NCBI GenBank assembly: GCA_963793595.1
Contig: CAWCBX010000072.1
Location: 13,769-77,768 of the forward strand
Source of the DNA: an uncultured Gammaproteobacteria bacterium
GTDB taxonomy: Bacteria; Pseudomonadota; Gammaproteobacteria; GCA-001735895
Reading direction: 5' to 3'
Length of the DNA stretch: 64,000 bases
Shown: in pieces, positions 45,241-64,000 of the stretch
Numbering within the stretch: the first letter of the stretch is position 1
Layout: the number at the start of each line of letters is the position of its first letter
The notes under the pieces: model-generated
What the model was told of the DNA's origin: nothing
Databases searched by the model: none
What the model saw: only the letters and a program-made list of their open reading frames with translations
Position numbers and translations under genes: made by a program

Positions 45241-46872
45241 TTATTTCAGTAGCACCTCGACGATCGGCGGCCAGATCAACAGCACAGTCAAGGCCAGAAT
45301 CTGGATGCCGATGAATGGCAGAAAACCTCTGAAGATGTCGGTCAGTGAAATATGCGGCGGGGCCACGGATTTCAGATAAAAGGCGGCCGGCCCGAACGGC
45401 GGCGACAGGAAACTGACCTGCATGTTCATACAGAACAGCACTCCGAACCACACCGACAGGTATTTCGGCTGCAATTCGCCGAACAGTCCGATCTCTTCGA
45501 TGGGCAGGCGCTGAACGATCGGCAGGAACACCGGGATGATCAGCAGCACGATGCCGACCCAGTCCATAAACGCGCCCATGAAAAGCAAGATGAACATCAT
45601 CATCAGCAGGATGCCCATTGTCGGCAGGTCGGCGCCGATGATCAGGTTTGCCACATAGGTCGGGCCGCCTGCGATGGTGTAGGCCCCGGCGAGCGCCGCT
45701 GCGCCGATGGTGACCCAGATGATGGTCCCGGTGGATTTCAACGTTCGCATCAGGCTTTCCCAGACCAGATCGAAGGATGCCTCGCCGCGCAGGATCGCGA
45801 TGATCAGGACCGAGATTGCCCCCATACCCGCAGCTTCTGTGATGCCGGTGATGCCGCCATAGATTGAACCCAGCACGACGCCGATCACAACGATCGGGGC
45901 CACCAGACCCTTGCCCATCTTCCAGCCCAGGGCGGAACGGTCTCGACCGAACGCAAATAGGGCAAGCAGCAGACAGATCGCGACAATGCCACCAAACCAT
46001 GGAACGTAGTCAGCTGTACCCCAGAAAATCGGATCGGTCCCATCACCGAGGTCAGTGTTCTGGCCCATGATCGTGAAGAACAGGGCGCGCAGGAACAGAA
46101 TAACTGAAAATCCGCAGAGCAGAATGTTCAGGAAGGCGCCGAACAGGGCCAGTTTCTCCAGGCCCTGCGGTTCTCCTGGAACCGGATCGGGCAGGGGGGC
46201 GTCGTCCGGGTTCATCTGAGTGCGCACGATGATGTAGATGATGATGAAACTGGCCAGCATGAACCCCGGCAGAAAGGCCGCGGTGAACAGCGCCTTGATC
46301 GAAGTCTCGGTGATCAGCCCGTAAATGATCAGCACGATCGAGGGCGGAATCATCGTGCCCAGCGAACCGCTTGCACAGATCGTACCGATGGCGAGATTCT
46401 GATTATAGCCAAGTCGCAGCATCTGCGGCAGCGCGATGAGCCCCAGAAGGACCACCTCGCCGCCGATGATGCCGGACATCGCCGCCATGATCACAGCCAT
46501 GATCGAGGTCACGATCGCGATCCCGCCACGCGTGCGATTCAGCCAGACATTGAGCGAAGAGTACATGTCCTTGGCGATACCGGATCGCTCCAGAAGTGCT
46601 GCCATGAAGATGAAAAGCGGAATGGATATCAGCACATAATCGGTGAGCAGCCCATAGATCTTCTGAGCCAGGATGTTCAGGGGTCCCGATCCCGGGCGTC
46701 CGGTCAGGATCCCGTCGCCGAAACTGAAGGGATCCAGCAGCAGCGCGGGCTCGAACTTCAACACCAGGACCAGAACGGCCAGGAAGGCCGATGCCATGCC
46801 GAGTGGCATGCCGATGGCCAGCAGAATGACAAGGCCCAGAAGAAGGACCAAAGAGATCGTTCCGATATCCAT
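45241..46872 (-). CDS. dctM: TRAP transporter large permease DctM (elongated, 543 aa)
   Basis: ISIPLFIFMA, MSGIIGG, SGSLGTMIPPSI, GITGITEAAG, FLSPPFG; extra hydrophobic insert in the middle. Confidence 0.93.
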   Translation of the reverse strand: MDIGTISLVLLLGLVILLAIGMPLGMASAFLAVLVLVLKFEPALLLDPFSFGDGILTGRPGSGPLNILAQKIYGLLTDYVLISIPLFIFMAALLERSGIAKDMYSSLNVWLNRTRGGIAIVTSIMAVIMAAMSGIIGGEVVLLGLIALPQMLRLGYNQNLAIGTICASGSLGTMIPPSIVLIIYGLITETSIKALFTAAFLPGFMLASFIIIYIIVRTQMNPDDAPLPDPVPGEPQGLEKLALFGAFLNILLCGFSVILFLRALFFTIMGQNTDLGDGTDPIFWGTADYVPWFGGIVAICLLLALFAFGRDRSALGWKMGKGLVAPIVVIGVVLGSIYGGITGITEAAGMGAISVLIIAILRGEASFDLVWESLMRTLKSTGTIIWVTIGAAALAGAYTIAGGPTYVANLIIGADLPTMGILLMMMFILLFMGAFMDWVGIVLLIIPVFLPIVQRLPIEEIGLFGELQPKYLSVWFGVLFCMNMQVSFLSPPFGPAAFYLKSVAPPHISLTDIFRGFLPFIGIQILALTVLLIWPPIVEVLLK

Positions 46873-47777
46873 CAGCTGTGGCCTTTCTGGTCACCTTGTA
46901 TCGCACCGCGGGTTACGTCCAGTTCGCCGACGCCCTGGGCCCCGACGGCTTGCCGGAGTTTTTCGAGCTCGTCCGCGTCGATATCATCCGCGGCTGTGTG
47001 TATGACAGGTTCGGCGTTCCAGTCTGATATCAGGTTGATTACCGACTGGATCGCGACCATCGCCACGACGAACAATACCATCGGTTTGAGTGTTGCCGGT
47101 ATCGGCGGGTCGAACGCGGTCCCGAACGTCTCCCAACGATAGAACTTGTCGAAGGCTTCGCCATATCCTCCGTAGATCAGTGCTCCGGCGAAGATCAGGA
47201 TCAGGGACACCGAAATGATATCAAACAGACGCTGTATGCCGCGCGGCATCACGTCGTAGAGCAGAAAGATCCGGATGTGGCTGCGCTGCTGCATCGCGTA
47301 GAGCCCGGCCCCCAGAAACACAAACCCGGCGAGCCAGAGCGATAACTCATTGGCCCAGAGCGTGGGAGCTTCGAATGCGTAACGCAGCACGACCTCGTAG
47401 AGCATCACACCGGTCAGCAGGACGATCATCATCATGATGACGCGACCAATGAACACCGCCAGCCGGTCTGCGGTGCGCCAATCTTCATATTCCATCGGGG
47501 CGCGCTGCACTGTAAACAAACCGATCACGCCGAAAACCGGTACGCCAATCAATGCAATCCAGTCGATGGCATCGGCAAAGCCCCCGAAAAGGCCGGGCAG
47601 TTCCGGCGTGATGTCGTTCCGTCGGAACAGGGCGCTGAGCTTGTCGACCTGCGATGGTTCATCCGGTGGAAACCAGTCGAGGATGAAGGCGGGTGCATGC
47701 CATGTCAGCCACCCCGCGCAGAAAACGAAAGCCAAGGGCACCAGCCATTCGACCAGGCTGCCGGATTTCTCGTGCAT
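46872..47777 (-). CDS. dctQ: TRAP transporter small permease DctQ with N-terminal extension (301 aa)
   Basis: YEVVLRYAFEAPTLWANELS, HIRIFLLY, WETFGTAFDPP core, preceded by about 95 extra residues with two TMs. Confidence 0.88.
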   Translation of the reverse strand: MHEKSGSLVEWLVPLAFVFCAGWLTWHAPAFILDWFPPDEPSQVDKLSALFRRNDITPELPGLFGGFADAIDWIALIGVPVFGVIGLFTVQRAPMEYEDWRTADRLAVFIGRVIMMMIVLLTGVMLYEVVLRYAFEAPTLWANELSLWLAGFVFLGAGLYAMQQRSHIRIFLLYDVMPRGIQRLFDIISVSLILIFAGALIYGGYGEAFDKFYRWETFGTAFDPPIPATLKPMVLFVVAMVAIQSVINLISDWNAEPVIHTAADDIDADELEKLRQAVGAQGVGELDVTRGAIQGDQKGHS

Positions 47778-54265: not shown

Positions 54266-55171
54266 ATGACCAGGAAAATCGAATTGCGCTCGCAGAAGTG
54301 GTTCAATAATCCCGACAACCGGGAAATGACGTCGCTCTACCTCGAACGTTATCTGAACTACGGGCTGACACGCGAAGAGCTGCAATCGGGCAAGCCGATC
54401 ATTGGTATTGCCCAGACCGGCAGCGATCTCAGCCCTTGTAACCGCCATCACATCGAGCTGACCAAACGGGTGCGCGACGGGGTGATCTCGGCAGGTGGCA
54501 CGGTGATCGAGATCCCGGTTCATCCGATTCAGGAGACCGGCAAGCGCCCGACCGCGATGCTTGACAGGAACCTGGCCTATCTGAGCCTGGTCGAGACGCT
54601 TTTCGGCTATCCTATCGATGGGGTCGTGCTGAACATCGGTTGCGACAAGACCACACCCGCGTTGTTGATGGCGGCAGCGACGGTGAACATACCCGCGATT
54701 GCACTGAGCGTGGGACCCATGTTGAATGGGTGGTTCCGGGGCGAGCGGACGGGCTCCGGTACCATCGTCTGGAAGGCGCGCGAGCTTTTGGCGGCAGGCG
54801 AGATCGACGACGAAGGCTTCATGGAACTCGTCGCGTCTTCGGCCCCGTCGGTGGGTTACTGCAACACCATGGGGACCGCCACGACGATGAATTCGCTGGC
54901 CGAGGCTCTGGGCATGCAAATGCCCGGATCCGCCGCGATTCCGGCCCCTTATCGGGAACGCGGGCAGATCAGCTATGCCACGGGCCAACGGATAGTCGAA
55001 ATGGTGCGCGAGGATCTGCGGCCATCGGCGATCATGACCCGCGCGGCCTTTGAGAATGCCATTGTCATCAACTCAGCCATCGGCGGGTCCACCAACGCCC
55101 CGATCCATCTGAACGCAATCGCTCGCCATCTGGGCGTGCCGCTGGACAACGACGATTGGCAGGGCGATTAA
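54266..55171 (+). pseudogene. IlvD/Edd-family sugar-acid dehydratase (XylD/AraD-like), truncated at about half length
   Basis: [52 protein letters not shown], then stops at DDWQGD* (301 aa; family members are about 580-600 aa). Confidence 0.88.
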
Positions 55172-55682
55172 TGGTTAATGTTGCTGTTTTTTCGTTTTTA
55201 AGTTTCCTCTTGTTAATGCTTTTGCCATCCGGCATTAAATAGACGTATTTTTCCCGACAAATTCTTGATAACAGCCAGCCACGCCAATTTTTGCATTTTT
55301 AACCTGATCTGTTTTTTACGTATGTGATTATTACACCTTCCACAGCCATCAGTTTTTACGCCTCATATATCGCCATTTTACGTCGATATAGCAATCAATG
55401 GCAATGGTTTTGTTTCGTTAAGTTATATTGTTACCAGCAGCAGCCTGTAATGATGCCAGCGGCATCATTAAACAGAACCGCCACCCGTGGTGCACCGTTA
55501 AATCCATTGGCATCAGCGGCGATAATGGTGGCGATCATAAACAGCCAACTCAGAATCCGGGTTTGATGGTGCTCGCCATTCCCAGAATTTCCGGCTTCCT
55601 GGTTGTGTGGCTCTGGCGATCCAGACGCGATCTCGCGAGATGATCTGTTTCGGCGATTGACCGAAAATCTGCTAAAGCTTCG
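55161..55682. other. Junction/spacer between alphaproteobacterial and gammaproteobacterial DNA
   Basis: GC falls from 36/60 (54781-54840) to 23/60 (55201-55260); no recognisable gene; truncated genes on both sides. Confidence 0.8.
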
Positions 55683-55802
55683 GTCAATCTGGACGAAGAA
55701 GCAGCTGACCTGGTTCGTTATCAACAGGCTTACGAGGCGTCCGCCCGCCTGATCAGTACGGCGCAGACCATATTTGATACTTTACTGGATAGCTTAAGGT
55801 AG
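55644..55802 (+). pseudogene. flgK: C-terminal fragment of hook-associated protein FlgK
   Basis: VNLDEEAADLVRYQQAYEASARLISTAQTIFDTLL* from 55683; in-frame TGA at 55641 upstream; 2 nt before flgL. Confidence 0.85.
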
Positions 55803-55804
55803 CC

Positions 55805-57004
55805 ATGAGAATTTCGACTCGACAGATCTATACCCAGGGAGTAGAAGCCTTTCAACAGCAGCAGCAGAAGCTGGCAAAGTTGCAGGAGCAGATTTCGACT
55901 GGCGTGCGCCTGAACAAACCTTCCGATGATCCGGCGGCGTCGGCAAAGGTACTCGAGCTCGAACAAAGCGTATCGCTTAATTTACAGTACCAGTCGAATA
56001 TCAATCTGGCTGAACAGCGCCTGGAACAACAGGATGCGGTACTGGCCAGTTATGATAATTTGTTGATCCGCGTACGGGAACTGGCGATACAGGGGAATAA
56101 TGCCCCGCTGGATACGGTATCCCGCAATGCCATCGCGGTGGAGATCGACGAGCGACTCAACGAGTTGTTGTCGCTAGCGAATACCATCGATGCCAACGGT
56201 GACTATTTGTTTGCCGGCTATCAGAATGACAGTGCGCCTTTTACCAAATCGACAACCGGATCCAGAGATCATGTCAACTTTAATGGTGACGCCGGCGTCA
56301 GGGCTATTCAGATCAGCCAGGTCCGACAGCTGGAGGTCGATATCCCCGGACAGGCGATTTTCATGGAGATTCCATCTGCAACGGCCCTGCGGGAACTGGT
56401 GGCTGCGGGTAATACCGGCAGCGGCGTCATGGCGCCTGCCAGCGTCGTAGATATGTCTGCCTACGCAGCCGGTGACTACGAAATTCGTTTCAGCGCACCC
56501 GGGGTATACGATGTATTCGATGTTGCCGGGGGTGTTAACATCGTTACCGGTGCTACCTATACCGATAGTCAGAATATCGACTTTCAGGGCATCAGGACTT
56601 CGATTACCGGTGCGCCCGCCGCGGGTGATGTTTTTACCGTCAGTGCCGGCCAGTTTGAGGATGTCTTTTCGATCGTCGCCAATTTATCGGAAACCCTGAA
56701 ATCAGGCTCGACCGATGCCGTCAGGGCCGCAAATATCGGACAAGCGCTGGCTGATCTCGATGCTGCATTCGAAGCTTCGCTCAATGCGCGCACTCAAATT
56801 GGCGGTCGGCTGAATACACTGGAAAGCCAACGCGATGACAACGATGCACAGGTACTGCAGACCCGGTCTACACTGAGCACGCTGCGCGATACTGATCTTG
56901 CGCAAGCCATCAGCCAGTTAACCCTTGAACAGACAACGCTGGACGCTGCGCAGGCCGTATTTGCCCGTATTACCAGCTCTTCGTTATTCAATTTCCTCAA
57001 GTAG
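55805..57004 (+). CDS. flgL: Flagellar hook-filament junction protein FlgL
   Basis: MRISTRQI...ISTGVRLNKPSDDP, DANGDYLFAG, C-terminal LRDTDLAQAISQL...SLFNFL. Confidence 0.95.
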   Translation: MRISTRQIYTQGVEAFQQQQQKLAKLQEQISTGVRLNKPSDDPAASAKVLELEQSVSLNLQYQSNINLAEQRLEQQDAVLASYDNLLIRVRELAIQGNNAPLDTVSRNAIAVEIDERLNELLSLANTIDANGDYLFAGYQNDSAPFTKSTTGSRDHVNFNGDAGVRAIQISQVRQLEVDIPGQAIFMEIPSATALRELVAAGNTGSGVMAPASVVDMSAYAAGDYEIRFSAPGVYDVFDVAGGVNIVTGATYTDSQNIDFQGIRTSITGAPAAGDVFTVSAGQFEDVFSIVANLSETLKSGSTDAVRAANIGQALADLDAAFEASLNARTQIGGRLNTLESQRDDNDAQVLQTRSTLSTLRDTDLAQAISQLTLEQTTLDAAQAVFARITSSSLFNFLK

Positions 57005-57130: not shown

Positions 57131-58504
57131 ATGCCTCAAATTATTAACACCAACATAGCGTCGTTAACGGCGCAGAGAAACCTCAACACTTCTCAGAGTA
57201 GCCTGGCCACGTCACTGCAACGCCTGTCGAGCGGTTTACGCATCAACAGCGCGAAAGACGATGCGGCGGGTCTTGCGATTTCAGAGCGCTTTACCACGCA
57301 GATTCGTGGTTTGAACCAGGCAATCAGAAATGCCAACGATGGTGTTTCGTTTGCGCAAACTGCTGAAGGCGCGTTGTCTACCTCGGGTGACGCGATGCAG
57401 CGTATTCGGGAACTCGCGGTACAATCGATCAACGACACCAACTCGTCTTCAGACCGTCAGGCACTGAATAACGAGGTGAGCCAGCTGATTGCAGAAGTCA
57501 ACCGCATCGCGAACTCAACCCAGTTCAACGGGCAAAACATCCTCGATGGTACTTCAAGTACTTTGACCTTCCAGGTCGGTGCGAACCAGGGTCAGGTTAT
57601 CCAGGTATCCGGTGTCGACTCGCGTACCTCTCAACTCGGTGCAAGGATTTCGACCAGTGGTTCAATCAGTGCCACTAACCTGGCATTGGCTGTAACAGCA
57701 AATGATCTGGTGATCAATGGTAACGCTGTCGATCTGACGGGTGACGTTACCATCAATGATGTGATCGGATCGATCAACCAGGTGGCTGCCGACTCCGGTG
57801 TTCAGGCGCTTAAAGCGACCAGCGTAGCGACAGCGGCAGCCGGTCTCAGTGCGGCGGCCGATGGTACCGCCTCGATCAACGGTGTAACCATATCGCTCAC
57901 AGCCACCGCTACCGGTGGATCTGGTGCCCTGAATATTGCAGCGATCAATGCCGTATCCAATCAAACCGGTGTTACTGCATCGGCTGGTACTGGTGAGGCG
58001 GTTGTACTGTCAAACTCTTCCGGTGCAGATATTGTGATCGCAGACGGAACCACCACCTTTGGTGGCGGTCCTGAGACCTTCTCCGCCGGTATTGTGCTTG
58101 CGGGTGCGGTAGCCGATGGTGCTTTTACAGCTGCGGGTACATTTGCGGTTGAAGCAGCGAGCACGGCGCTTGGTGGCGTACAGGCAGACAACACGCTGTC
58201 AGGTGTCGACGTTCTCACTGGTGCCACCGCCAACGATGCACTGTTAACGCTGGACTTTGCCTTGCAACAGGTTTCCGGACTGCGTGCAGAGCTGGGTGCG
58301 GTACAGACTCGATTCGAATCTACCATTTCGAATCTGAGTATCAATACCGAGAACCTGTCGGCTGCTCGTTCACGGATTCGTGATGCAGACTTTGCAGCCG
58401 AGACTGCCGAGTTGACGCGTAGCCAGATTCTGCAGCAGGCCGGTATTTCAATTCTGTCGCAGGCTAACGCCCAGCCACAGAATGTTCTGGCTTTACTTCA
58501 GTAA
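57131..58504 (+). CDS. fliC: Flagellin
   Basis: MPQIINTNIASLTAQRNL...RLSSGLRINSAKDDAAGL; RAELGAVQTRFE...SRIRDADFA...QANAQPQNVLALLQ. Confidence 0.98.
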   Translation: MPQIINTNIASLTAQRNLNTSQSSLATSLQRLSSGLRINSAKDDAAGLAISERFTTQIRGLNQAIRNANDGVSFAQTAEGALSTSGDAMQRIRELAVQSINDTNSSSDRQALNNEVSQLIAEVNRIANSTQFNGQNILDGTSSTLTFQVGANQGQVIQVSGVDSRTSQLGARISTSGSISATNLALAVTANDLVINGNAVDLTGDVTINDVIGSINQVAADSGVQALKATSVATAAAGLSAAADGTASINGVTISLTATATGGSGALNIAAINAVSNQTGVTASAGTGEAVVLSNSSGADIVIADGTTTFGGGPETFSAGIVLAGAVADGAFTAAGTFAVEAASTALGGVQADNTLSGVDVLTGATANDALLTLDFALQQVSGLRAELGAVQTRFESTISNLSINTENLSAARSRIRDADFAAETAELTRSQILQQAGISILSQANAQPQNVLALLQ

Positions 58505-58515
58505 CAGGTAGATAG

Positions 58516-58545
58516 AAGACTGGCATCGCCGATGCCAGTCTTTTT
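58516..58545 (+). terminator. Rho-independent terminator after fliC
   Basis: GACTGGCATC-GCC-GATGCCAGTC-TTTTT. Confidence 0.85.
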
Positions 58546-58563
58546 ATCAAGCGGAGATAAATT

Positions 58564-58977
58564 ATGGCTAACGAGATTTCAAGCATAGCATCCAACAGAA
58601 CCTCGAGCGGTGCTGCGAAAAACTCACGACAGGTCGCGAAGACTGACGTAGCCACATTGCCGGGAAAAGGTGGCGAAGTATTGCCATCCAGAGGCAAAGA
58701 GCTGCCTGAACAGGCTGCTGATACTGCCCGGATCAGTGAAGCTGTCACCAGGATCAATGAAATCGTGCAGAGCGTTCAGCGTGATTTATCGTTCAACCTG
58801 GATGAAGACAGCGGGAAAACCATTATCAGGGTCGTCGACTCGGGAAGTGGTGAACTGATTCGGCAGATACCCTCGGAAGAAGCGCTGGCAATAGCACTGC
58901 AACTTCGTGACTTACAGAAAGAAACAGTTAGCGAGGGCGAAATAGGCCAGGGTTTACTGTTTTCAGACAGGACCTGA
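58564..58977 (+). CDS. flaG: Flagellar protein FlaG
   Basis: RDLSFNLDEDSGKTIIRVVDSGSGELIRQIPSEE...GLLF. Confidence 0.93.
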   Translation: MANEISSIASNRTSSGAAKNSRQVAKTDVATLPGKGGEVLPSRGKELPEQAADTARISEAVTRINEIVQSVQRDLSFNLDEDSGKTIIRVVDSGSGELIRQIPSEEALAIALQLRDLQKETVSEGEIGQGLLFSDRT

Positions 58978-58983
58978 CAAAAT

Positions 58984-58999
58984 TGGTCTGTTTCTTGCT
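58984..58999 (+). promoter_or_regulatory. Putative sigma54 -24/-12 promoter upstream of fliD
   Basis: TGGTCTGTTTCTTGCT: GG-N10-GC spacing with a TTGC -12 element. Confidence 0.6.
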
Positions 59000-59019
59000 C
59001 ACTAATTGTAAAGCATGCG

Positions 59020-59057
59020 TGAGAAGGGGTTAGGTAATGCTACCCCTTCTCATTTTT
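59020..59057 (+). terminator. Terminator-like hairpin between flaG and fliD
   Basis: TGAGAAGGGGT-N11-ACCCCTTCTCA-TTTTT. Confidence 0.65.
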
Positions 59058-59122
59058 ACTTAAGTGAACGGGTCTCCTGACCTGAACCCTATTAGCTCAA
59101 ATACAGTAACAGGAAGAAGTCG

Positions 59123-61168
59123 ATGGCCGCAATCAGTTCACTTGGTGTTGGATCCGGACTGGATCTGAGTTCCCTGGTTTCGGGTTTGCTCGAAGCCGAA
59201 CGCGCACCAACCGCGAATCGCCTCGCCACCAAGGAGCAGAATTTCAGCACCGAACTGTCCGGCTTCGGACTTTTGCGCAGTTCACTATCCCAGTTTCAGT
59301 CCGGCCTTAGTGCATTGCAGTCTTCGGATGCGTTCAACGCGAAGGAAATTTCCCTATCCGATACAAACGTATTCTCGGCAAGTGCGGAGAATTCGGCGGA
59401 TGTCGGCAATTACTCGATCGAGGTGACGGCGCTGGCCAGGGCACAATCGCTCGCCACCAACGCGGCTACCGCGTTTACTACGGTAAACGACACCATCGGT
59501 AGCGGCACCCTGACGGTTCAATTTGGCACCACTTCGACGACGGGTCCCTATGCGTTCACTCCCGATTTGGCCAGTACCGCGCAAACCATCGAGGTCAATG
59601 CCACCAACAACAATACTACGCTTGCCGGTCTGCGTGATTACATCAACGATAATAACTATGGAATCCAGGCGTCGATAGTCAATGACGGCAACGGCTATCG
59701 CCTGTTACTGACGTCGGAAAATTCGGGCGCAGCCAACAGCATGGAAATCACCTCAAGCGGTGACGCTGATGGTAACGACAACGATAATGCCGGACTGTCG
59801 CAACTGGCGTTTAACGCTGCGGCACAAACCAGCCTGACGCAGACGGTTGCTGCGCAGGATGCCGCCTTGTCGATCAACGGGCTCGCTATTAGCAGCGCGA
59901 CCAACTCGATCGACGGCGCAATTAACGGAGTCACAATCGATTTACTGAAAGCCGACCCCGGTAATTTCGTTGCGGTAGGCGTAAAAGAAAATCGCAATGA
60001 AATAACAGCCGCCGTTACTAATTTTGTAACCGCCTACAATGAGCTTGAACAAAATATTGATGCCCTGACGAGCTACGATCCTGAGACCGGTACCGGCAGC
60101 GCGTTGAGCGGTGACTTTACCGTGCGCAGTATTAGCGCACAGATTCGTAATGTCATTTTTGGCAGCCTTTCGACCGTGAACAGTAATGTCAGGTCGCTGG
60201 TCGACGTCGGTATCACCACCAATTCAAGCGGTAGCCTGAAACTCGACAGCAGTAAGCTGGCAGACGCGTTGCTCGACTACCCGGATGAAGTCGAGGCGTT
60301 GTTCACGCTGGCGGGTAGCACAACCGACTCCGGTATAGGCTATGTTTCGGTAACTGCCGATACCCAACCCGGGGATTACCCGGTTAACGTGATTTCTGTG
60401 GAATCGCAGGGCGTCATAACCGGTACGGGACCGGTTACCGACCTCAGGGTCACGAACAACAGTAACAACATGACGCTTATCGTTGACGGGTTCTCGACCG
60501 GGAGTATTACCCTGACCAACGGGGATTATGCTGACGAGGATGCGTTGGCGAGCGAAATTCAGACGCAAATCAATGCGGCTAGTACACTGGTAACGAATGG
60601 TGTATCGGTTACGGTGAGCTATGACGTTGCCAGCGACCGTTTCGTCATTACATCGGATAGCAGTGGATCCGCTTCGACGGTGGAAATTACCGCAATCGAC
60701 CCCCAGACTGATAATCGATATGGTCTGACGGTTGGCAATGGTGTCGATGGTACCGATCTCGTCGCGTCCATTGATGGTGTAAACGCATCGGTCGATGAAC
60801 AGGTATTGACCAGTCTTTCGGGTGACAGTAAAGGTTTGTCGATAGAACTCCTTTCTGGCGGAGCAGGTAATAGAGGGACAGTCTCGATCTCGCGTGGACT
60901 GGCTGACACACTCGATAGCCTGTTGAGCAATTTTCTTGATTCAGACGGGTTTATTGCATCGCGGGAAGAGAGTATCAATGACGGTCTCGACGAAATCTTC
61001 GATGAACGGATCAGGCTCGACGATCGAATCTCAAGCCTCGAGGCCCGCCTGATACGCCAGTTTTCGGCGCTCGATGCGCTGGTCGCCCAGTTCAACCAGA
61101 CCAGTAGTTTCCTGACTCAGCAGCTGGCAAACCTGCCCAGGCCCAACTCGATCAATAACAATAATTAA
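59123..61168 (+). CDS. fliD: Flagellar filament cap FliD (large, 681 aa)
   Basis: ISSLGVGSGLDLSSLVSGLLEAER, FVTAYNEL, GSLKLDSSKL, RLIRQFSALDALVAQFNQT. Confidence 0.96.
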   Translation: MAAISSLGVGSGLDLSSLVSGLLEAERAPTANRLATKEQNFSTELSGFGLLRSSLSQFQSGLSALQSSDAFNAKEISLSDTNVFSASAENSADVGNYSIEVTALARAQSLATNAATAFTTVNDTIGSGTLTVQFGTTSTTGPYAFTPDLASTAQTIEVNATNNNTTLAGLRDYINDNNYGIQASIVNDGNGYRLLLTSENSGAANSMEITSSGDADGNDNDNAGLSQLAFNAAAQTSLTQTVAAQDAALSINGLAISSATNSIDGAINGVTIDLLKADPGNFVAVGVKENRNEITAAVTNFVTAYNELEQNIDALTSYDPETGTGSALSGDFTVRSISAQIRNVIFGSLSTVNSNVRSLVDVGITTNSSGSLKLDSSKLADALLDYPDEVEALFTLAGSTTDSGIGYVSVTADTQPGDYPVNVISVESQGVITGTGPVTDLRVTNNSNNMTLIVDGFSTGSITLTNGDYADEDALASEIQTQINAASTLVTNGVSVTVSYDVASDRFVITSDSSGSASTVEITAIDPQTDNRYGLTVGNGVDGTDLVASIDGVNASVDEQVLTSLSGDSKGLSIELLSGGAGNRGTVSISRGLADTLDSLLSNFLDSDGFIASREESINDGLDEIFDERIRLDDRISSLEARLIRQFSALDALVAQFNQTSSFLTQQLANLPRPNSINNNN

Positions 61169-61224
61169 TATCGATTTCCGGCTAAAGAAAATCGGGTACG
61201 AGACGATAACCTAGACTAGAAGCC

Positions 61225-61644
61225 ATGGAGATAGAGCCAATGACAAACCTAGCACTCAAAGCCGTCGACCAGTACCAGTCGGCAGATAACAGTTCGATTG
61301 AATACGCGGACCCCCATGAACTAATCCTGCGTCTTATGAATGGCGCCATCGAACGAATCGCCCAGGCCAAGGGTGCCATCCAGCACGGCACTGTGAAACA
61401 GAAGGGTGAATGTATCGGTAAGGCTATTTCTATCATCGGGGGCCTCGATGGCTGTCTTGACCATTCACATGCAGGCGACCTGTCAAACAACCTTTCGGCC
61501 CTGTATGAGTACATGATTATTTCTCTGACCCAGGCCAATATCAGCGATGATATAGCCAAGCTCAATGAAACCAGCGACCTTTTGTTGCAAATAAAGTCAG
61601 CCTGGGAGCAGATTCCCGAGTATGCCCGGTCTACCGGCGCCTAA
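61225..61644 (+). CDS. fliS: Flagellin chaperone FliS
   Basis: ADPHELILRLMNGAI, KAISIIGGL...LD, NLSALYEYM, IKSAWEQI. Confidence 0.93.
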   Translation: MEIEPMTNLALKAVDQYQSADNSSIEYADPHELILRLMNGAIERIAQAKGAIQHGTVKQKGECIGKAISIIGGLDGCLDHSHAGDLSNNLSALYEYMIISLTQANISDDIAKLNETSDLLLQIKSAWEQIPEYARSTGA

Positions 61645-61660
61645 CCTGGCCTTCTTTAAA

Positions 61661-61969
61661 ATGGACAAACAGCAAGCCCTTAACGCGGCGATCGACTTGA
61701 CTGATGAAATTCTCGAGCTGCTTGACAGCGGTGAATTTGAACGTGTCGGTGAGCTTGAGGTGAAGAGAAAATCATTTATAGAACAGGCGTTTGCGGCGTC
61801 TATCGAACAAATAGATTTAATTAGGGCACAACATTTGCAAAGCTTGAATCAGCAGGTTGTCGGCAAACTGGAATTGTTTAAACAATCGGTAATTATGCAG
61901 CAGAATCGTCTTAGAACCTCTTCCAAAGCCTCGCAGGCTTACCTGAGTAACGACTCGGTCCCCAAATAA
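61661..61969 (+). CDS. fliT: FliT-like FliD chaperone
   Basis: Helical 102-aa protein between fliS and fleQ (LLDSGEFERVGELEVKRK...KASQAY); assigned mainly by position. Confidence 0.6.
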   Translation: MDKQQALNAAIDLTDEILELLDSGEFERVGELEVKRKSFIEQAFAASIEQIDLIRAQHLQSLNQQVVGKLELFKQSVIMQQNRLRTSSKASQAYLSNDSVPK

Positions 61970-62020
61970 AATCGGCAAAGATCGATTAAAATATTTAATG
62001 TAATAAAGTCACTTTTTACC

Positions 62021-62083
62021 GCCGAAATATTGTCGTCTTGGACTAAAATCTAGGTTAAATTCCGAGGCCGTCAAAATACTGGC
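62021..62083. promoter_or_regulatory. Two 14-bp FleQ-box-like sites upstream of fleQ
   Basis: GCCGAAATATTGTC (62021-62034) and GTCAAAATACTGGC (62070-62083); a similar GTCATTTTTATGGC lies at 63534-63547 before fleS. Confidence 0.3.
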
Positions 62084-62116
62084 TGGCAATTAACTCAGAA
62101 GCGGGAGTGACAGCAG

Positions 62117-63532
62117 ATGATGGAACATAGTGGGGGGCAGGACAACAACGAAGTACTCGTTGTCGATTCCAATCACACACGTGGACATTCTTTCCTCGCC
62201 GTACTCGGCTTCATCAAGGTCGAAGCCAAACTCATAACCCCTGAACAATTACCCGATATCCCACGCCGCGAACTATTTAGTTATCTCGCCATTTTCAGTA
62301 CCGGCAGTGACGATATTTCCAGATATTTCCTGGAGCGTAATAAAGAGGATAAATGCCAGTACCCGGTAATATTACTGGCCGATAAATCGGAATTGAGCTC
62401 GCTCGAAATCGTCGTGCAACTGCCGTTTATTTCCGGCCTGTGTTTTCAGTCCGATTACTATTCGCTATCACAGGTTCTCGATCAGGCGCGCAAGCATAAT
62501 AAGCGTGAGCGCCGCATGCAAAATCGCGAATGCCAGCCACTGATTGGTAATAGTAATGCGATCGAACGTATCAATTTAATGATCGACCAGGTTTCCGATA
62601 CGAATGCGTCGGTTTTAATCCTGGGGGATTCGGGAACTGGTAAAGAAGTCATTGCACGTAATATCCACGCGCAGTCATCCCGCAGCAATAAGCCGTTTGT
62701 GCCAATTAATTGTGGTGCTATCCCGGCTGAATTGCTTGAAAGCGAGTTGTTTGGTCACGAGAAGGGCGCGTTTACCGGGGCGATCAGCTCCCGCCAGGGA
62801 CGCTTTGAACTGGCCGAGGGTGGTGTTATCTTCCTCGACGAAATCGGTGATATGCCATTACCCATGCAGGTTAAACTGCTGCGTGTGCTGCAGGAACGCT
62901 GTTACGAAAAAGTGGGTAGTAACAAAACCATAAAATCCGACGTACGCGTGATTGCTGCCACGCACCGTGGGCTCGAGGAGTTGATTGCAGAAGGTAAATT
63001 CCGTGAAGACCTTTTTTATCGTCTCAATGTTTTCCCAATCGAAGTGTCACCACTGCGGGAACGTAAATCGGATATTCCGTTATTGATACATGAAATGATT
63101 TCCCGTATCGAACGCGAAAATCGCGGTTCGGTGCGACTCAGTAAGAAAGCGATTGCAATGTTGCAACAGTATCAATGGCCCGGTAACGTGCGTGAACTTG
63201 CGAATTTGATCGAGCGACTCGCAATCCTGTTCCCGCACGGCGTGGTCGATTCCAAGGATTTACCGGAGAAATATCAAACCGAGGGATTCCTTGAAGCGAC
63301 TGAAACAGCCGCAGATCAGCCAGAGGCGTCTCTGTCCGCAGCCGATGTCGATCAGTTGCCCAGCGACGGTATAGACATGAAGAAGTATCTCACCGATATC
63401 GAGATTTCACTGATTGAACAGGCCCTGTCAAAATCCAACAATATCGTCGCAAGGGCGGCGACCATGCTGAATATGCGGCGTACCACCCTCGTCGAAAAAA
63501 TGCGCAAATACGAAATAGAACGTAACGATTAG
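62117..63532 (+). CDS. fleQ: Sigma54-dependent master flagellar regulator FleQ/FlrA
   Basis: N-terminal FleQ-type domain, GDSGTGKE Walker [32 protein letters not shown]-terminal HTH ([18 protein letters not shown]). Confidence 0.92.
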
Positions 63533-63600
63533 CGTCATTTTTATGGCATCTCAAAACAAGCTTAATCGCAACTAATTGATATTTAAGACTTTGTTGTAAC

Positions 63601-63616
63601 TGGTTTGGCTTATGCA
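63601..63616 (+). promoter_or_regulatory. Possible sigma54 promoter upstream of fleS
   Basis: TGGTTTGGCTTATGCA has GG-N10-GC spacing and resembles the fliD site, but lies only 12 nt from the ATG. Confidence 0.35.
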
Positions 63617-63627
63617 CCCTTTACGGG

Positions 63628-64000
63628 ATGGAAAGCCAGAAACCACATAGTGACCAACCCGAGCTGCAGAATCTGCAACATGCGTTCGAGCAGTTCAATC
63701 GCCTGTCAGTCAGCCTCAACGCCAGCGTCGATCAGATCAACCAGAATGTCGATCGCCTCAATCCCCCTGATATGCTGGATCGGTATGACGCAAACCCGCG
63801 CTTACTTGACGCTATCCCCGGTGGCGTCGTGGTGTTGGATCGGCATGGCAAGGTTGCCGAAGCCAATGAAAGCGCGCGTCTGCTGCTGGGGGCGCCGGTT
63901 AATCAGCAAGCCTGGCGCGATATCGTGCGGCGGGTATTCTTGCCCGAACTCGATCAGGGCGAATTGAAAACCGCCGATGGCCGGCAGTTCAGCATCTCGA
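63628..64000 (+). CDS. fleS: Sensor histidine kinase FleS/FlrB, 5' part
   Basis: Manual translation: MESQKP...LQHAFEQFNRLSVSL...RLLDAIPGGVVVLDRHGKVAEANESARLLLG...WRDIVRRVF; runs off the window. Confidence 0.88.
   Translation, partial: MESQKPHSDQPELQNLQHAFEQFNRLSVSLNASVDQINQNVDRLNPPDMLDRYDANPRLLDAIPGGVVVLDRHGKVAEANESARLLLGAPVNQQAWRDIVRRVFLPELDQGELKTADGRQFSIS

Follow-up and report, generated by a model that had tools for sequence, protein, structure and literature searches.

An adapter lying inside a read is an accepted signature of chimeric Oxford Nanopore Technologies (ONT) reads (Xu et al. 2018, PMC6156371), and the middle-adapter check of Porechop detects such reads (Xu et al. 2018, PMC6156371; White et al. 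2017, cited there). Chimeras with an internal adapter account for about 2-3% of ONT data, and a failure to separate consecutive molecules during sequencing can give rise to them (PMC6156371). The Meta-NanoSim study put chimeric reads at 1.7-8.2% of ONT data, described interspecies chimeras in ONT metagenomes and warned that they can affect assembly and binning (PMC10025935). Here we analyzed a 64,000-nucleotide stretch (the window) of contig CAWCBX010000072.1 (C72, positions 13769-77768) from the metagenome-assembled genome (MAG) of a gammaproteobacterium, an assembly of 233 contigs and 3.83 Mb. Near 55 kb of the window, a Roseobacter-like dehydratase gene breaks off and, after an AT-rich spacer of about 480 nucleotides, the end of flgK and a flagellar locus follow. 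From the comparison of assembled contigs, public genomes and public contigs by sequence, we conclude that this junction is almost certainly a technical chimera derived from one adapter-containing nanopore read, and not the product of horizontal gene transfer.

The join in C72 resembles the middle-adapter chimeras in that an adapter is found at the exact boundary of unrelated molecules and the base-calls just after it are poor. Unlike those, it is fossilised in a deposited MAG contig instead of being seen as a read, and it appears to hold three segments and two scars. It would share with the interspecies chimeras of Meta-NanoSim the presence of segments of two species in one read. Those chimeras were free of known adapters after trimming, whereas the adapters of C72 were never trimmed, and for this reason the artefact can be diagnosed from sequence alone.

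The earlier note on this stretch had described an xylD-like gene that stops in mid-protein, a sharp drop of guanine-plus-cytosine (GC) content, a flgK surviving as a C-terminal remnant of about 40 codons, and a FleQ-type flagellar locus downstream, and all four observations held. The dehydratase open reading frame (ORF) matches Pfam ILVD_EDD_N with an E-value of 8.6e-82 over profile positions 1-259 of 316. The GC content amounts to 0.61-0.62 between 51 and 55 kb and to 0.48-0.54 over the remainder of the window, with the fall from 0.61 to 0.53 located at about 55.17 kb. There are 49 clean flgK codons before flgL, and flgL, fliC, flaG, fliD, fliS, fleQ and a PAS-domain ORF are intact. The spacer, which the note left undescribed, holds the adapter scars as well as a garbled flgK copy (Table 1).

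For the adapter comparison, AATGTACTTCGTTCAGTTACGTATTGCT was used, the ONT ligation adapter of Porechop's adapter list. Its forward alignment to 55411-55430, the core of scar 2, scored 25 against 17.0 ± 2.6 for shuffles, of which 1 in 300 reached 25, and the core ends 4 nucleotides before the garbled flgK begins. Aligned to a theoretical read-through of an end adapter followed by a start adapter, scar 2 matched over 50 nucleotides with a score of 27 against 14.5 ± 3.1. Scar 1, at the proposed end of the first molecule, was compared with scar 2 and scored 30, while shuffles gave 18.2 ± 3.2 and none of 500 reached 30. The ONT rapid adapter, PCR adapters and tails, and PacBio SMRTbell sequences had no significant match at the junction. 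At the contig ends of the assembly, the adapter tail GTATTGCT was found within 80 nucleotides of the tip in read-start orientation at 25 of 466 ends, where 0.9 were expected, and at none of the 466 in the opposite orientation; these tails (...ACGTATTGCT) lie 5-40 nucleotides from the tip. The enrichment indicates that untrimmed ONT reads went into the assembly, and since the adapters were not trimmed before assembly, the contig tips consist of adapter and sequence of low quality.

A comparable scar was observed outside the window at C136:5416-5485, to which scar 2 aligned with a score of 31 against 15.8 ± 3.2. This internal scar (…TGTATGTACCTTTGCTTGGCTCAGTTACGTATTACT) is located at a GC step from 0.49 to 0.60 and shares its pre-adapter string with scar 2, and it probably marks another chimeric join made at the read level.

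The sequence immediately after scar 2 was also informative. The segment 55435-55651 aligned to the last 293 nucleotides of the reverse complement of contig C214 with a local alignment score of 71, compared with 23.7 ± 2.4 for shuffles. It corresponds to the 270 nucleotides before the C214 overlap with 184 matches and 24 mismatches (66% identity); relative to C214 it lacks 62 bases, in 34 events, and gains 9, in 8 events, which makes 42 indel events in total. These indels occur about once per 6 nucleotides, are limited to about 220 nucleotides, and are flanked by clean sequence on both sides. Such dense indels confined between clean flanks are the profile of an uncorrected, deletion-biased long read and not that of pseudogene decay. 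The remaining part of the spacer was compared with other sequences as well. As a noisy continuation of the dehydratase it scored 18-21 against 18-19 for shuffles, and this candidate was rejected. The best score of 55172-55410 among 2,136 chunks of the whole assembly was 37 (mean 23.3, standard deviation 2.9), which falls within the extremes to be expected from that many chunks and is not significant.

The missing part of flgK was found on another contig of the same assembly. In a blastn search with the junction, a match was obtained at the very end of C214, and the reverse complement of this contig carries flgJ followed by flgK from its start codon (codons 1-598), ending at '...AIDRKSA'. Its last 23 nucleotides are identical to window 55652-55674, and when it is continued by the window from 55675 onward, a single open FlgK of 640 residues results. 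Since FlgL, the FlgK C-terminus and FliD are each single-copy in the assembly, C214 has no other possible continuation. An independent contig, ENA ERZ21832195 NODE_51941 (L089; 4,555 bp, with a SPAdes-style name), encodes a 640-residue FlgK together with a FlgL identical to that of the window. All of its 4,555 nucleotides align to the in-silico join with 98.5% identity and without a gap across the join point, whereas its match to the window as assembled starts only at about 55642. In six genomes of the same genus, FlgK residues 1-640 are found in one open frame of 642-662 residues with 70-81% identity. In the five of these genomes whose flanks were checked, collinearity with the join extended to both sides, and nothing in them matched the 6 kb on the left of the junction as assembled. 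Of the two broken genes, for which the earlier note had considered intact copies elsewhere, flgK does have them (on C214 and L089), and the dehydratase does not, as the rest of the alphaproteobacterial genome is not in the bin.

The comparison with L089 also gave a side observation. Relative to the flgJ-flgK-flgL-fliC region of the bin it differs by 69 substitutions and no indels, and its FlgK differs at 5 of 640 residues. A closely related strain is thus present in another public assembly.

These data bear on the possibility that about 69 kb of Roseobacter-group DNA integrated very recently into the gammaproteobacterial flgK, with a junction poorly resolved through few reads. Such an integration would agree with the finding that both blocks are on one contig and that each is clean until a few hundred bases from the join. 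We consider it very unlikely, because the adapter scars lie inside the junction and because there are two copies of the flgK segment, a clean one on C214 and a garbled one on C72, with C214 stopping exactly at the merge point. Furthermore, flgK is uninterrupted in the 98.5%-identical independent contig and in the six congeners, the dehydratase is cut in mid-domain with its other half nowhere in the bin, and the bin reaches its high completeness without the block. The absence of a mobility signal, already recorded by the earlier note, also argues against integration: no tRNA gene was found in the window and no integrase or transposase family among the 20 largest left-side ORFs. Apart from the C214 overlap, the junction region matched nothing else in the assembly (target-site or direct repeats were not specifically searched for), and the junction string had no match in a public metagenome contig collection. 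Slightly less probable again is a junction that is real in a minority of cells, in which about 69 kb of Roseobacter DNA would have been captured inside flgK of a marine gammaproteobacterium. The adapter-like strings and the garbled flgK would then be coincidental low-quality base-calls of one genuine spanning read.

In order to determine which side is foreign, the composition of C72 was compared with that of the rest of the bin. Over the whole contig, the left 68.9 kb have a GC content of 0.612 and the right 67.7 kb of 0.528, and the other 232 contigs range from 0.46 to 0.60, mostly 0.50-0.56, with the rest of the assembly at about 53% GC. The tetranucleotide comparison of the two sides suggested by the earlier note separated them in the same way. 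The left 10-kb chunks are at a distance of 0.028-0.047 from the bin centroid and the right chunks at 0.010-0.016, where the scatter of the bin itself, calculated from the other 232 contigs, is 0.0144 ± 0.0045. The bin is that of a 53% GC gammaproteobacterium, 99.6% complete with 4.1% contamination. Taken together, composition, tetranucleotide distances and bin completeness indicate that the flagellar side is native to the bin and that the high-GC block of 68.9 kb (about 69 kb, 61% GC) is foreign. The Roseobacter-like block probably adds to the contamination estimate of the bin.

The same comparison speaks to the reverse scenario raised in the earlier note, an alphaproteobacterial host that gained a gamma-type, FleQ-controlled flagellar cluster. 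A precedent exists in Rhodobacter sphaeroides, an alphaproteobacterium whose fla1 is an acquired gamma-type flagellar system, and the flagellar locus in the window is intact. In composition, the other 232 contigs resemble the flagellar side and not the alpha side. The flagellar genes are syntenic within the bin's own genus and, at 70-81% FlgK identity with the same gene order, native to it. Beyond the junction-proximal flank, no alpha-type sequence matching the flanks of the Roseobacter relatives was found in the bin. An acquisition of this kind is therefore the least probable of the explanations weighed here, and this part of the earlier note did not stand. The likeness to fla1 is superficial, consisting in alpha-like DNA beside gamma-like flagellar DNA; unlike in R. 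sphaeroides, the host here is the gammaproteobacterium and the juxtaposition is technical.

Metagenome assemblers do mis-join at repeats, and a join of two contigs by the assembler or scaffolder, caused by a shared repeat or by an error in the graph and not by a chimeric read, was also considered. Large GC steps without adapter hits are present in other contigs of this assembly, which is in line with errors of that type. However, no repeat is common to both sides of the junction, and a graph error would not create a 490-nucleotide, raw-read-like bridge with adapter scars, which makes such a mis-join highly improbable. Overall, the raw-read patch with its adapter scars, the restoration of flgK by C214 and the independent contig, and composition together with taxonomy render all these rivals very unlikely. 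The preference of the earlier note for a misassembly was thus borne out by the scars, the raw-read errors, the flgK continuation on C214, the independent contig and the six congeners.

We propose that a single read held at least three molecules back-to-back with adapter remnants between them. The first would be a Roseobacter-group fragment ending within the dehydratase gene, the second a piece of about 174 nucleotides between the two scars, and the third a gammaproteobacterial fragment beginning within flgK. The long-read assembler would have followed this chimeric read from the alphaproteobacterial contig into the gammaproteobacterial flagellar contig. Because no genuine molecule spans the join, the bridge 55164-55651 (490 nucleotides) would be backed by no other read and would have kept raw-read quality without consensus correction. 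The genuine flgK reads would support C214, with flgJ and flgK codons 1-598, and this contig would have stayed a dead end that stops where the two paths merge (55652-74). One read alone was presumably responsible. Since remnants of both an end adapter and a start adapter appear to be present and the base-calls right after the adapter are very poor, we favour concatenation in the pore or base-caller over ligation during library preparation.

Several points weigh against the interpretation as a read-level chimera. The identity of the garbled flgK to its clean counterpart is poorer than that of typical ONT reads. The adapter match is noisy, reaching 25 of a possible 56, and genome-wide about 0.17% of 300-nucleotide window-strands score at least 25. 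The direct adapter match of scar 1 is not significant (13 vs 15.1), and its support comes through the similarity to scar 2. For the adapter sequence itself, the enrichment at the contig ends of this assembly serves as internal validation. In addition, the last 7 kb of the alphaproteobacterial block are without split-frame alignments, so they give no indirect sign of a step in quality or coverage.

Table 1. Features on both sides of the junction and within the bridge, in window coordinates.
Feature	Position	Strand	Basis
Roseobacter-like (Paracoccaceae) chromosomal block, ~61% GC	1-55163		GC, tetranucleotides, collinearity, ORF content
Truncated IlvD/XylD-type sugar-acid dehydratase, 301 of ~595 residues	54266-55171	+	Pfam ILVD_EDD_N
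Adapter-like scar 1, proposed end of molecule 1 and start of the next	55164-55215	+	Likeness to scar 2
AT-rich filler, ~174 nucleotides, putatively a short unrelated molecule or junk base-calls	55216-55389		No significant match
Adapter scar 2, putative 3'-end adapter remnant then ONT 5' ligation adapter	55390-55430	+	Core 55411-55430
Garbled copy of flgK codons ~510-598, of raw-read quality	55435-55651	+	Alignment to the reverse complement of C214
Clean 3' end of native flgK, 49 codons and stop	55652-55802	+	Codons 55653-55799, stop 55800-55802
flgL (hook-associated protein 3), native	55805-57004	+	Pfam Flagellin_N and flgK_1st_1
fliC	57131-58504	+	Pfam
flaG	58564-58977	+	Pfam
fliD	59123-61168	+	Pfam
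fliS	61225-61644	+	Pfam
ORF of 115 residues, no Pfam match	61622-61969	+	Between fliS and fleQ
fleQ	62117-63532	+	Pfam FleQ, AAA+ and HTH_8 domains (FleQ-type sigma-54 activator)
PAS-domain ORF, fleS-like by position	from 63628	+	Pfam

On the left side, C72:1-13768 and the window up to the bridge form one foreign segment. The dehydratase fragment is 87-93% identical at the amino acid level to Paracoccaceae or Roseobacter-group proteins of 589-599 residues and tracks its intact relatives as far as '...PLDNDDWQ' (about 55162-55169), after which it diverges; its best match within the bin's own genus is 33-36%. The 6 kb upstream of it are collinear with Roseobacter-group genomes at 70-83% amino acid identity. 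For the C-terminal half of the dehydratase and the downstream Roseobacter genes, the assembly holds only paralog-level matches of 30-58%, and such an absence is expected if the alphaproteobacterial genome was binned elsewhere. The 20 largest ORFs of the block are ordinary chromosomal metabolic and envelope genes, including altronate/galactarate dehydratase, TRAP DctP and DctM, short-chain dehydrogenases/reductases, AsmA/YhdP, M23/DUF5930 and an AraC regulator. Exact-protein look-ups of three alpha-side proteins in public assemblies gave no record.

Two further observations were made on this side. At window 45241-47777 on the minus strand, two ORFs meet at 46872, the first of which (543 residues) matches Pfam DctM. 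A relative's protein of 747 residues (L010) aligns across 45244-47454 with 76% identity in one frame, and the ORF break could come from an in-frame stop or from a sequencing error within the alphaproteobacterial block. Short contigs encoding this Roseobacter-type dehydratase at 88-89% identity were also found in other public MAGs, labelled Granulosicoccaceae (L080), Nitratireductor (L058) and Rhizobiaceae (L065), and they could reflect bin contamination or a gene that has truly spread among these MAGs.

On the right side, the composition of 57131-64000 is typical of the bin, and the flagellar gene content and order are kept in the bin's genus. The locus at 55.6-64 kb has the same flgK-flgL-fliC-flaG-fliD-fliS-fleQ-fleS content and order as the gamma-type, FleQ/FleN-regulated polar loci of the Pseudomonas/Vibrio type. 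Compared with these it shows nothing unusual, and it is ordinary and intact after C214 is joined. In such gamma-type loci, fliT-like chaperone genes sit at the position of the ORF between fliS and fleQ.

Other parts of the assembly also departed from the composition of the bin. At four positions (C90 ~21050, C54 ~77650, C206 ~16600 and C157 ~39850), neighbouring 4-kb blocks differ in GC content by 0.18-0.20, a larger step than that of the studied junction, and no adapter hit was present within 700 nucleotides of these steps. They could be genomic islands or chimeras of other kinds. Among the other contigs, the chunk C30:1-10000 (GC content 0.621) deviates most in tetranucleotide usage, with a distance of 0.040, and it may represent additional non-native DNA or contamination of the bin. 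Over the final 1.6 kb of C72 (135001-136602, outside the window), the GC content climbs to 0.60-0.66, and no adapter match was found there.

The method may be of use beyond this contig, as adapter scars combined with a patch of raw-read errors can diagnose read-level chimeras in a finished assembly without the reads. Since many contig ends carry untrimmed adapters and there is at least one further internal scar (C136), no inter-phylum "transfer" deduced from this assembly should be trusted before the reads have been checked. The junction itself has curatorial value only and no biological significance: C72 should be cut near 55164 and 55652, the bridge 55164-55651 discarded, and the 68.9-kb Roseobacter-like block taken out of the bin. 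For the gammaproteobacterium, joining C214 to the right half of C72 would restore flgJ-flgK-flgL.

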